From assembly GCA_043805415.1 (NCBI GenBank), contig JAZDHZ010000033.1, forward strand, positions 153,600 through 217,599: DNA of 64,000 nt, read 5' to 3'. Numbering within the stretch: the first letter of the stretch is position 1; each line of letters opens with the position of its first letter. A program made the position numbers and the translations under genes. Below the pieces are notes generated by a model, which searched no databases, was not told the DNA's origin, and worked only from the letters and a program-made list of their open reading frames with translations. The DNA is from Candidatus Omnitrophota bacterium. Lineage in GTDB: Bacteria; Omnitrophota; Gorgyraeia; B26-G9. Positions 36,901 through 37,982 of this stretch are shown in pieces.

Positions 36901-37587
36901 AATGGCCAGACGTACTATTATCAGACTGATGGCTTAGGTTCAGTCACCAATATCACCGACGTCAACAATCAGACCGTTAAAACATATCAATATGACAGTT
37001 TCGGTAATATAAAATCAACAACCGGTTCTTTGAATCAGCCGTTTACATATACCGGCAGGGAATATGACTCTGAATCAGGATTATATTACTACCGAGCCAG
37101 ATACTACGATCCGAGCATCGGCAGATTCCTGCAAGAAGATCCGGTTTGGGATACAAATCTGTACGCTTATGTTGGGAATAATCCTGTAAATTATGTCGAT
37201 CCGGATGGTCTGCAATCTCTCAATGTTTTTTTTATTGACATAGCAGGGTTAGGCCGGTTGCAAGCTCTTAATGTTCTTTTTGTGGACATAGCAGGGTTAG
37301 GCCCAATCTTTGGAGCTCAGAATATACCTGGTTTGAGAGAAGGTCTGAGTGAAATTTGTTTTAATACAGAGAGTATTGGTTCTGATGGCAAACTTTTAAG
37401 TAATAAAGGGAAAGAAGAAATAAAGGAAAGAAAACGTCCTGGACGGAATAATGAGATTATTCGAATTAGAAAAATTAAAGATATATGGGGTAAAACTAAA
37501 GAAGTATGGCATGAGGTTCTAGATAGAAAAGGTAATCTTATTCATAGGGATTGGAAAGGCCCAGGAGCAAATCCTTATATTAAATAA
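30985..37587 (+). CDS. secreted RHS/YD-repeat polymorphic toxin (signal peptide, 2 PKD, transthyretin-like CarbopepD_reg, 7-blade FG-GAP propeller, YD shell, RHS core ending DPDGL, novel ~125-aa C-terminal tip)
   Basis: GTG start with AAAAGGAAGG RBS; DxDxDG FG-GAP blades; many YD repeats (YxYDxxGN); YYYRARYYDPSIGRFLQEDP...NPVNYVDPDGL core. Confidence 0.9.
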   Translation: MNISSYFRLVGLRIMLFFVLLGVVLIPTDCFAQEVNEPQADSPYIEITSPKNNSTTDLDVLGVDVYFHGKVLETTSSEPLYGGNVKIITLVLNGETIGIEYNPASIKESTKHFGANLSGLAEGSYVLQSFAYQGSLNSGIIGKSAPITFIIDRNKPPVANAGLNITAHVGSEVDLDASASFDPDGDVLSYQWNVIFFPIGSQPELTAAVETAVFISDAIGEYEIQVTVTDPRGAEDSTSIIITTTNNAPEAIATSNEAKIFVNASIALDASLSSDPDADILTYNWTLSAPQDSLAELIDANSSIATLIPDITGTYTAQVTVSDPWGASDTVTVSITAIPDTRPFTTPESGFITGMVVDAYTESSLSDVKVSIRGVSGFISTDGDGEFSFPTPDSGTYLLTFEKNGYVYSQRTIKVVSTRDAFVDTVYLKQFDSAVTTITNAGGTHHSADGTIQLTIPANALPGDVSTIDVKTTKYVKGRELPSALPRSSMFTYAIDFQPDGINFKENVSGRFLNELGFLPGTQIPIGYYNKNTGKWEDTALKGIVSSDGQWVNFSLHHFSPYDINLSAYLRPKYSSPSVQAEISLNKINSKNCAKDKGNSIVYLKSGELVQENVLPAYTVLDQKYAPALIYNSLGARPSQLFDVKTRLDSTISIIPETTDFKLKVEGIEDSIHFRGVSGNTNYRYLFDAVNARGQTLSTGSYPYKLEVTNNYEGLTYGTTSFFGGPATGDTGVLTREPVPMTTIQSGRFSINNLSSSPFGSGWSLSVLQRLHQEPDGALLLTEGDGSALSFSYNKHLHQAQLKQHFAVIANDNSSIYVFSNTGDGNFNNPKRYIVGTSPFWLTSADYDRDGFTDLAVGDYVDRQVRVLKGNGNGTFNDPVAYPVPYVPFNINSADFNQDGYVDIIAAANGAYLQLMFNNGDGTFQTPVSISVGETPGKPIIGDFNQDHIPDVAFTTSISNIWYGVYIFINNGEGSFRFNGSYEADRRLNNMVAGDFNSDGVTDLAVTDSYLHKVYIFINNGDGTMKAPVSLSSANPTGIVAGDFNQDQIIDLAVTNINADTISMLLNYGDATFSPYTFSTGDRPLKIFATDFDSDEIADLLITTNTMWGVSLTIGDGDGTFEDWYNLPFYTWGGTTSSIRDITPLNFIADTEVEYYAPENSYLASGGDYTYIVKNDDDSFTRFYKNGVRIEFNAQGIQTAIIDKNGNTTTYEYEDRDVDGEVDELIRVILPNGAQYQYVYDGSGKLLSVTDPAQRATNFVINSNGDLMQVIYEDGSSVSYEYDDNHLMTKKIDKRGNTTDYEYDEYGTITQIRSPERLITDVDANGFITSSRKRETRNYIASDVKGLTNDLGLGLGTYNNPAEPVNPELMTETFVDAKANIWTYQTNKLGGRLKFVDPLGNVEQYARNANSELLKLTRANGSITRFNYDCRGNVRLVKEEYSGAESKVIYESEFSQPVEIKDALNNLTNIDYDENGNPVIITDANGTMMVMEYNIRGQITKATSAYGLPEQNQIIFEYDPETFNLKKVTDSLNRITSYTYDDAGNVVSIIDPKLKTTVYAYDSMNRVQTVKDADNNITSFDYDAAGNLIAVNTPNNQTTQYVYDEQGQLVKTINALSEETFYSYDSNRNLSVVTTPIGDEIKLYYNAANLLKDKFLPDDTVTYAYDAVYNLIAVSDNDSSLEFDYDPISRLTKGYALAGFNQPQTAISYAYDLNNNRTLMVEPNSIKKNYVYDSLNRLTEIRNTSDTLLASFDYDPLSRRTKKTLDPGVNQIEAGYAYDNASQLLSLAYNPLSLAYNPLSLAYDYTYDNAGNRDSMTDDYGLHSYQYDNLYRLTQAIHPNISIEQFVYDALGNRNSVQYSYNDANQLLEDGLFTYNYDNNGNMIAKIRKGSGEQTTYTYDSEDQLININSPGMSVSYRYDALGRRIEKNVNGQITKYVYDGEDIIAEYDVNNNIIARYTHGPAIDEPLILDKNGQTYYYQTDGLGSVTNITDVNNQTVKTYQYDSFGNIKSTTGSLNQPFTYTGREYDSESGLYYYRARYYDPSIGRFLQEDPVWDTNLYAYVGNNPVNYVDPDGLQSLNVFFIDIAGLGRLQALNVLFVDIAGLGPIFGAQNIPGLREGLSEICFNTESIGSDGKLLSNKGKEEIKERKRPGRNNEIIRIRKIKDIWGKTKEVWHEVLDRKGNLIHRDWKGPGANPYIK
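36341..36400 (+). repeat. 21-bp in-frame tandem repeat (LSLAYNP x ~2.5) inside rhs
   Basis: agtcttgcgtataatcctttg / agtcttgcttataatcctttg / agtcttgcttatgat. Confidence 0.7.
37217..37305 (+). repeat. ~46-bp imperfect tandem duplication in the toxin-tip coding region (LNVFFIDIAGLG / LNVLFVDIAGLG)
   Basis: caatgttttttttattgacatagcagggttaggcc repeated as taatgttctttttgtggacatagcagggttaggcc. Confidence 0.7.
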
Positions 37588-37601
37588 AATGGAGAAATAA
37601 C

Positions 37602-37982
37602 ATGCAAAGTTCTAATAGTGGAAATCTAAAATTTCCTTTGGGAAGTTATAATGGTTATACGGAATTAATTAAGTGTAGGATATCTATAATCATAGACTTA
37701 ATTAGAGAAAATAAAATTAAAGAGGCGGAAAAAGGAATAGCAACTTTAGCCTTAGAACTTATTTATGAAATTGAAAAAAATTATTTAAAAGCAGAAACTG
37801 CTGATAAATATTTTACTTTGTTAGATATTGTTATTGGTGATAACTTTCCTGAAATAGAATTTTCTGAAGAAATTAAAAATATTATTATAGAGGGAATGAC
37901 ATTGCATGATTTAGGTAGTAGTTTTGGACCTAATTTAGTGGATTTAAAGGAGTCGATAAAAGCTTTTAATGATACTAAATAA
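37602..37982 (+). CDS. putative cognate immunity protein of the RHS toxin (126 aa, no known domain)
   Basis: Position immediately 3' of rhs (14-nt gap) with GGAG RBS; size typical of RHS immunity genes. Confidence 0.45.
   Translation: MQSSNSGNLKFPLGSYNGYTELIKCRISIIIDLIRENKIKEAEKGIATLALELIYEIEKNYLKAETADKYFTLLDIVIGDNFPEIEFSEEIKNIIIEGMTLHDLGSSFGPNLVDLKESIKAFNDTK

Follow-up and report, generated by a model that had tools for sequence, protein, structure and literature searches.

RHS polymorphic toxins, exemplified by the Rhs proteins of E. coli and Salmonella and by WapA of B. subtilis, which is Sec-dependent and belongs to the type not associated with a type VI secretion system (T6SS), combine a shell of YD repeats with a core that terminates in DPxGL, a C-terminal cargo that varies and, right downstream of it, an immunity gene, and those of them that have orphan modules exhibit a displaced orphan core-tip, a break of homology at DPxGL and a cassette with deviating GC content. 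Short C-terminal cassette toxins followed by an immunity gene and organized in arrays with common leaders are also found among the Ntox/Tox families (Zhang et al. 2012; e.g., Ntox33), and BECR-fold RNases (RelE/ParE, colicin D/E5 and barnase-like Ntox) provide small basic toxin domains with conserved His, Glu, Arg and Lys residues, fused to a scaffold or standing alone and accompanied by a neutralising, acidic cytoplasmic partner. These traits recur in the locus described here and its relatives, in which the partner is a putative neutraliser. It lies in a 64,000-nt stretch of DNA (hereafter the window; contig JAZDHZ010000033.1, positions 153,600 to 217,599) and comprises the 3′ end of an RHS gene, encoding a C-terminal tip, together with an open reading frame (ORF) for a 126-aa protein behind it. 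In contrast to the known RHS toxins, this locus has a cargo and an immunity protein that fall outside the described families, its RHS protein has an N-terminus that is signal-like and carries PKD, CarboxypepD_reg and FG-GAP modules rather than PAAR, prePAAR or VgrG, and it comes from an Omnitrophota bacterium that has not been cultivated. The architecture of the locus is ordinary for RHS, while its novelty resides in the cargo and immunity families. As judged from sequence comparisons, the region 37213-37982 would serve a Sec-type RHS polymorphic toxin as its cargo cassette, and very probably it carries a genuine new toxin/immunity family.

The core of the RHS protein ends with ...NPVNYVDPDGL, where the codons of DPDGL (37198-37212) mark the conserved autoproteolysis and cargo junction, and the tip behind it consists of 124 aa (37213-37584, stop codon at 37585-37587), in line with the junction and the tip of ~125 aa read in the original prediction. 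The whole tip had been taken there for the toxin; it turned out to be bipartite, so that only the last ~60 aa can be ascribed to the toxin domain, and the duplicated segment, considered below, belongs to a non-conserved linker outside the toxin fold. Residues 1-55 are acidic/hydrophobic and non-conserved, while residues ~62-122 form a basic, all-beta domain. Exhaustive phmmer search through 1.84 billion representative proteins revealed true homologues for residues ~62-123 (P0003 as the best, E 7.6e-14, and also P0004 and P0005), including two RHS fragments, P0006 and P0008, the latter from Omnitrophota, with the domain placed after ...DPFGL, and a group of stand-alone proteins of 65-74 aa. These homologues surfaced in the exhaustive search only, a word-indexed protein search, for which the whole tip served as query, having returned nothing. 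The profile built on the domain collected 34 members, all of them "hypothetical" and none with a Pfam domain, and HMMER searches altogether brought ~40 relatives; the family is rare, with a few dozen sequences in ~15 billion proteins.

Conservation within the family was estimated for 42 non-identical sequences (positions are given in domain numbering). H45 (37510-37512), E46 (37513-37515) and G52 (37531-37533) are kept in all 42, W44 (37507-37509) and G38 in 41, and R31, V43 and V47 in 40, the same number having Lys or Arg at position 32; H56 (37543-37545) is retained by 39 sequences and E42 by 38. The resulting signature reads R-x-R-K ... G-x-T-x-E-V-W-H-E-V ... G ... H, and the window copy keeps every invariant residue. 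Of the His and Asp residues previously noticed as conserved-looking, the histidines stood the comparison (H45 in 42/42, H56 in 39/42), but the Asp of the HRD motif is conserved in the RHS-linked subgroup only. The K/R-rich character of the C-terminal region proved to be real, the last 69 aa of the tip having an isoelectric point (pI) of 10.2 and a net charge of +8.9. AlphaFold2 (AF2) supplied with the family alignment predicts a five-strand antiparallel meander with no helix, with a predicted local distance difference test score (pLDDT) of 80.

Searches against known families were nearly empty. The tip has no Pfam or NCBIfam family at E<=1, which agrees with its proposed position outside the known nuclease, deaminase, ADP-ribosyltransferase and Ntox families and sets it apart from Ntox/Tox toxins. 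PADLOC and PHROGs contain no match for the tip, the 126-aa ORF or their relatives; PDB sequence and profile searches with the tip and the ORF brought noise, apart from one marginal match to a YD repeat; and the predicted toxin fold found no structural match among RNase folds of the BECR, barnase, RNase T1 or colicin E3 type. Full-text search for EVWHEV, HRDWKGP, EGMTLHD and VWHEVLD as motif strings was blank, and one supplementary file of the Levy-lab polymorphic-toxin preprint, the part of that source consulted, gave no match. Since Pfam, NCBIfam, PADLOC and PHROGs have no counterparts and the PDB searches were almost blank, both the toxin and the immunity family appear to be undescribed in any resource queried. 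For 10 homologues of the toxin domain, no family was found at E<=5 except sub-threshold matches to phage tail tube proteins, which come back in three libraries for P0004, P0005, P0016 and P0041 (PF20608, E 0.007-0.27; NF047353, 0.21; phrog_820, 0.4). No named tail tube protein is present among the matches of the domain in the BFVD fold search, and a relationship with phage tail tubes is at most a weak lead.

The 126-aa ORF begins 14 nt past the stop codon of the RHS gene and is preceded by GGAG at 37591-37594, 7 nt before its ATG, exactly the spacing and ribosome-binding site assigned to it earlier. Two 117-aa proteins, one from a JGI metagenome contig and one from a Chloroflexi metagenome-assembled genome, are clearly homologous to its product, and their genes overlap by 4 nt with upstream stand-alone genes for putative toxins of ~72 aa. 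Alignment of six partners from independent loci revealed 12 invariant columns (M1, A47, D68, F71, T72, L74, E86, E97, G98, M99, H102 and D103), the motif EGMxLHD spanning E97-G98-M99 and H102-D103, and the window ORF is intact with all 12 of them. The partners are acidic (pI 4.1-5.7) and lack an N-terminal hydrophobic segment, and a family scan found no DNA-binding domain in them. The resemblance of "LHD(I/L)G(K)" to the HD domain was rejected, as the matches are sub-threshold (E 0.03-0.1) and the protein is too short for the HD fold.

In order to survey the pairing of the two families, hidden Markov models (HMMs) of both were run on 17 loci, obtained from scans of GTDB genomes and JGI metagenomes, and on the window. 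In 14 of the 16 loci bearing the toxin domain (the window, L001-L008, L010-L012, L015 and L016) a partner homologue is the next gene directly downstream of it, with HMM E-values from 1e-53 to 1e-12. L013 and L014 have the partner beside a truncated remnant of the toxin, and L003 has an additional partner copy. The gene pairing and the two loci with a toxin remnant speak in favor of the proposed assignment of the 126-aa ORF as an immunity gene.

The original prediction had also suggested looking for the same tip on other scaffolds, and it does occur there: on at least four other RHS C-termini (P0006/L009, P0008/L010, L012 and L005), after DPFGL, DPYGK or DPLGY, and in a non-RHS array beside Ntox33. 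The latter, represented by L003 and L008, is composed of cassettes with the common leader ...PKEGPVPGENGQGTDKGSDCGPLEGGIPNANLNDNTTDGAKDSGTSEGDS, in which this toxin and its partner are followed by Ntox33 and DUF4279. Three cassettes are discernible in L003 (34-354, 2714-3187, 4135-4452 and 5426-5761) and L008, with the common leader MN(D/E)NTTDGAKDSGTSEGDS and with PKEGPVPGENGQGTDKGSDCGPLEGGIPNANL before it, their C-terminal domains being different, namely an unknown one, a member of this toxin family and Ntox33. The domain exists in addition as stand-alone proteins of 65-82 aa without RHS (~72 aa in Chloroflexota), and the genes of stand-alone toxin/partner pairs overlap by 4 nt or 1 nt (L001, L002, L004 and L007).

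The linker of the window tip starts with the tandem duplication noted in the original prediction, which is real and in frame, although its period is 48 nt and not 46. Tandem Repeats Finder (TRF) delimits it as 37211-37303 (period 48, 1.9 copies, 88% matches, score 151), and across the full period the two units are identical at 40 of 48 nt. As 48 nt correspond to 16 codons, the reading frame is kept through the duplication; the first Leu of unit 1 is that of DPDGL, and the T8 run reported inside the duplication was found at 37226-37233 as codons GTT TTT TTT ATT. Single-sequence AF2 modelling of the whole tip gave pLDDT 54 with the N-terminal 65 residues unstructured, which is taken as a hint only. 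In the exhaustive phmmer search, tip residues 2-60 matched only multi-repeat proteins of unrelated kinds, including 22-aa leucine-rich repeats (P0009, P0013-15 and P0017) and a cadherin-like repeat (P0007), and since these matches involve multiple stretches, their E-values are inflated; they were treated as artefacts of repeats and composition. A leucine-rich repeat reading of the 16-aa unit was accordingly rejected, Pfam being blank and the phmmer matches belonging to unrelated repeat classes, and so was a PT-TG-like pre-toxin reading of "DIAGLG" in the linker, for which Pfam support is absent and which has a loose resemblance only, to "WDIAGFLP" in P0037. None of the RHS-linked homologues possesses this linker segment; their linkers differ from each other, most of them having a hydrophobic stretch shortly after the cleavage motif.

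Several features of the locus bear on the origin of the cassette (Table 1). The identity of the main RHS gene to the orphan copy located downstream stops exactly at the DPxGL codon (37212), the GC content falls from 37% in the RHS shell to 31% in the toxin domain and 26% in the immunity gene, and a remnant of the RHS core starts at the immunity stop codon. The homology break, the lower GC content and the remnant jointly imply a horizontally exchanged cargo cassette, for which the 77-nt remnant is apparently a recombination scar marking its right-hand edge.

Table 1. Positions of the RHS gene, the putative toxin/immunity cassette and adjacent elements in the window.
Feature	Position	Strand	Comment
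RHS/YD-repeat polymorphic toxin gene	30985..37587	+	2200 aa; MFH1062623.1; annotated "FG-GAP-like repeat-containing protein"
Rhs-associated core, aa 2003-2076	36991..37212	+	TIGR03696 positions 1-76 of 76, E 1.4e-25
In-frame tandem duplication, 2 x 48 nt, LQSLNVFFIDIAGLGR / LQALNVLFVDIAGLGP	37211..37306	+	TRF; in variable linker
Non-conserved linker between duplication and toxin domain	37307..37395	+	No homologues; pLDDT <50, single-sequence AF2
Conserved putative toxin domain, ~61 aa, basic, predicted all-beta, five strands	37396..37578	+	phmmer/profile family, AF2
Putative cognate immunity gene, 126 aa	37602..37982	+	MFH1062624.1; pI 4.7; no signal peptide
77-nt RHS-core remnant, NNNIIARYTHGPSIDEPLILEKS	37978..38054	+	94% identical to 39352-39428, 83% to 36835-36911
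Insertion element	38112..39137	+	Y1_Tnp + DnaA_C transposase gene 38179-39129; 27-nt inverted repeats with GGTCAGACCTC
Orphan RHS C-terminal module	39157..40113	+	Core fragment 90% identical to 36673-36972; unrelated Gly-rich tip after DPEGL

These data are compatible with the following scheme of action. Judging from the characterised RHS and Tc proteins, the RHS protein would cleave itself after DPDGL, releasing a 124-aa fragment composed of the variable linker with the 16-codon duplication and the toxin domain of ~60 residues, while the acidic cytoplasmic protein encoded by the next gene would most likely neutralise the toxin by direct binding to its basic face. The target is expected to be a conserved cytoplasmic component, because the free-standing, translationally coupled modules of Chloroflexota would have to act in their own cytoplasm and the partner has no export signal. 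As for the activity, where the original prediction suggested nucleic-acid targeting, our best guess, offered tentatively, is that RNA or another nucleic acid undergoes metal-independent cleavage or is tightly bound. A nucleic-acid substrate, probably RNA, is suggested by the invariant His and Glu, the second His and the conserved Arg/Lys residues on a basic sheet; the two histidines and the Glu would work together with these Arg/Lys. Several observations weigh against this interpretation as a whole. On a predicted beta strand H45 is the direct neighbor of E46, so that the two should face opposite sides, an unfavorable geometry for a simple catalytic dyad; with strand boundaries only as a guide, one face of the sheet would be formed by R18, E46 and H56, and the opposite one by R31, H45 and R57. 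In two members Gln replaces H56 and in one Tyr does so, and several members of the family are non-basic (pI 6-7). The pairing also has gaps: L009 has no detectable partner homologue, its 122-aa ORF being very divergent (FGEIQFFHGAL versus EGMxLHD​LG), and in L017, a member of a divergent subclade, the place of the partner is taken by an unrelated 78-aa ORF. Finally, the window copy itself departs from consensus at some of the well-conserved positions (K for G10, N for G25 and I for S28).

If the beta domain is non-enzymatic, it might be a stoichiometric binder that poisons a target in the cytoplasm (e.g., ribosome, polymerase or topoisomerase) or disturbs the membrane, with the partner simply sequestering it; the invariant His-Glu pair, the second His in 39 of 42 sequences and the conserved Arg/Lys are seen more typically in catalysis and phosphate binding than on a surface for binding only, and we regard such a binder as a doubtful, though serious, candidate. 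The departures from consensus, the position of the duplication directly after the cleavage site and the abundance of insertion sequence (IS) elements and remnants at the locus could instead be signs of decaying or inactive cargo, to which the T8 tract might be added. Such decay is improbable, given that the duplication leaves the ORF intact and its frame unbroken, that no invariant toxin residue is missing and that the immunity gene, itself intact, has retained its 12 invariant columns; moreover, the repeat units have diverged at 8 of 48 nt without a frameshift, so the duplication must have been tolerated for some time.

The similarity of the domain to YD repeats raises two more questions, one about its role and one about its origin. 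The hairpin at its center, DPDG-x-T-x-EVWHEV-x-D-x-x-G-N-L, looks like a YD repeat, the solved Rhs shell 8qja with "DAHGRITTIWHEVTGDDG" marginally matches it (E 0.048), and hhalign against the YD units of the RHS protein itself gives P 0.022 at a probability of 2%, the hairpin and this alignment lending weak support at best. In terms of role, the domain might be a divergent piece of the YD shell, serving as an extension or plug of the RHS cocoon next to a gene unrelated to immunity. We consider this very improbable: the domain stands after DPxGL in every RHS-linked case, it is found without RHS both as stand-alone 65-82-aa proteins and in the non-RHS cassette array, and the partner gene accompanies it in 14 of 16 loci. 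Furthermore, the models that readily recognise the shell of the RHS protein (PF05593 RHS_repeat, 11 stretches, E 6.7e-66; TIGR01643, 10 stretches, E 1e-53) do not match the domain, and YD windows of the protein score no higher than shuffled controls (maximum 4.4 bits versus 6.1). Common ancestry with YD hairpins is possible, but a purely structural role is unsupported. In terms of origin, we hold it to be unlikely that the toxin is a new minimal all-beta fold evolved from YD-repeat hairpins of the Rhs shell, in which the register DPxG-x-T-x...D-x-x-G-N-L was kept, Y-x-Y-D turned into V-W-H-E-V-x-D and a catalytic centre of His-Glu and His was gained, and which later became an autonomous toxin-antitoxin module in Chloroflexota.

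Returning to the preferred assignment, a new toxin/immunity pair delivered by a Sec-type RHS protein, the host gene is consistent with it. The protein is built, in this order, of a signal-like hydrophobic N-terminus, two to three PKD domains, CarboxypepD_reg, FG-GAP repeats, the RHS shell, the Rhs-associated core and the tip, and MNISSYFRLVGLRIMLFFVLLGVVLIPTDCFA|QE at its N-terminus, read by eye, is signal-like. PAAR, VgrG and DUF4150 are not among the 20 Pfam families matched on it, and the genes around the locus are housekeeping ones, encoding AcrB-type pumps, an AddAB-like helicase-nuclease pair and YajC/SecDF. Since the PAAR/VgrG module is absent and the neighbors are of the housekeeping type, the domain content identifies the RHS protein as a presumably Sec-type polymorphic toxin and not a T6SS-delivered one. 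Besides the 48-nt unit in the tip, the gene contains another recent in-frame tandem duplication, a 21-nt x 3 repeat (LSLAYNP x 3) in the shell at 36337-36399.

The segment downstream of the cassette is rich in mobile and repeated elements. Within 37978-38117 the RHS-core remnant is followed by six copies of the 12-nt repeat GCAAAGACAACA and then by an IS inverted repeat, and short tandem repeats of 12-30 nt adjoin the transposase elements. Two genes for fusion transposases of Y1_Tnp (IS200-like) and DnaA_C, 76% identical in DNA over the 300 nt compared, and a 3′-end remnant are present (38112-39137, 40516-40606 and 41695-42680). The inverted repeats flanking the transposase genes carry the palindromic GGTCWGACCYC, encountered 5 times in the window versus 0.02 expected, and the same motif is located at orphan RHS cassette junctions of the unrelated metagenome contig L005 (471-483 and 2219-2231), which suggests that these may be REP/RAYT-like elements associated with RHS cassette arrays. 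The orphan tip (LKMVFNGGGHIPVSAGTALG...GIGLGISLP...) has no Pfam match, and the next ORF, 40139-40345, encodes a very hydrophobic 68-aa protein; together they may represent a toxin that acts on membranes and its membrane-located immunity protein. A 282-aa ORF (40708-41556) with a hydrophobic N-terminus and no Pfam match occupies part of the interval from the orphan module to the second transposase, inside the island described next. A near-perfect direct repeat of ~100 nt (30488-30590 and 42680-42782) corresponds to the 3′ end of an addB-like PD-(D/E)XK gene (...YDLDQVFEADDSDDSCKYCPFVSLCG*) plus ~20 nt past its stop codon. Its copies enclose an island of ~12.2 kb, located between addB and yajC, with the RHS gene, the toxin/immunity cassette, the two transposases and the orphan tip, and the repeat looks like an integration or duplication scar.

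With this pair the repertoire of polymorphic toxins gains one toxin and one immunity family, both from phyla in which experimental genetics is nearly absent (Omnitrophota and Chloroflexota). At ~55-60 residues the toxin is very small, and it is all-beta as predicted and devoid of any recognisable relative of known structure; its activity, once solved, could reveal a new mode of cell killing or a new compact nucleic-acid enzyme. Should the origin from YD hairpins be true, the cargo would have descended from the very scaffold that delivers it. The pair, found as RHS cargo and also as a module standing free, represents another case of traffic between toxin-antitoxin and polymorphic-toxin systems.

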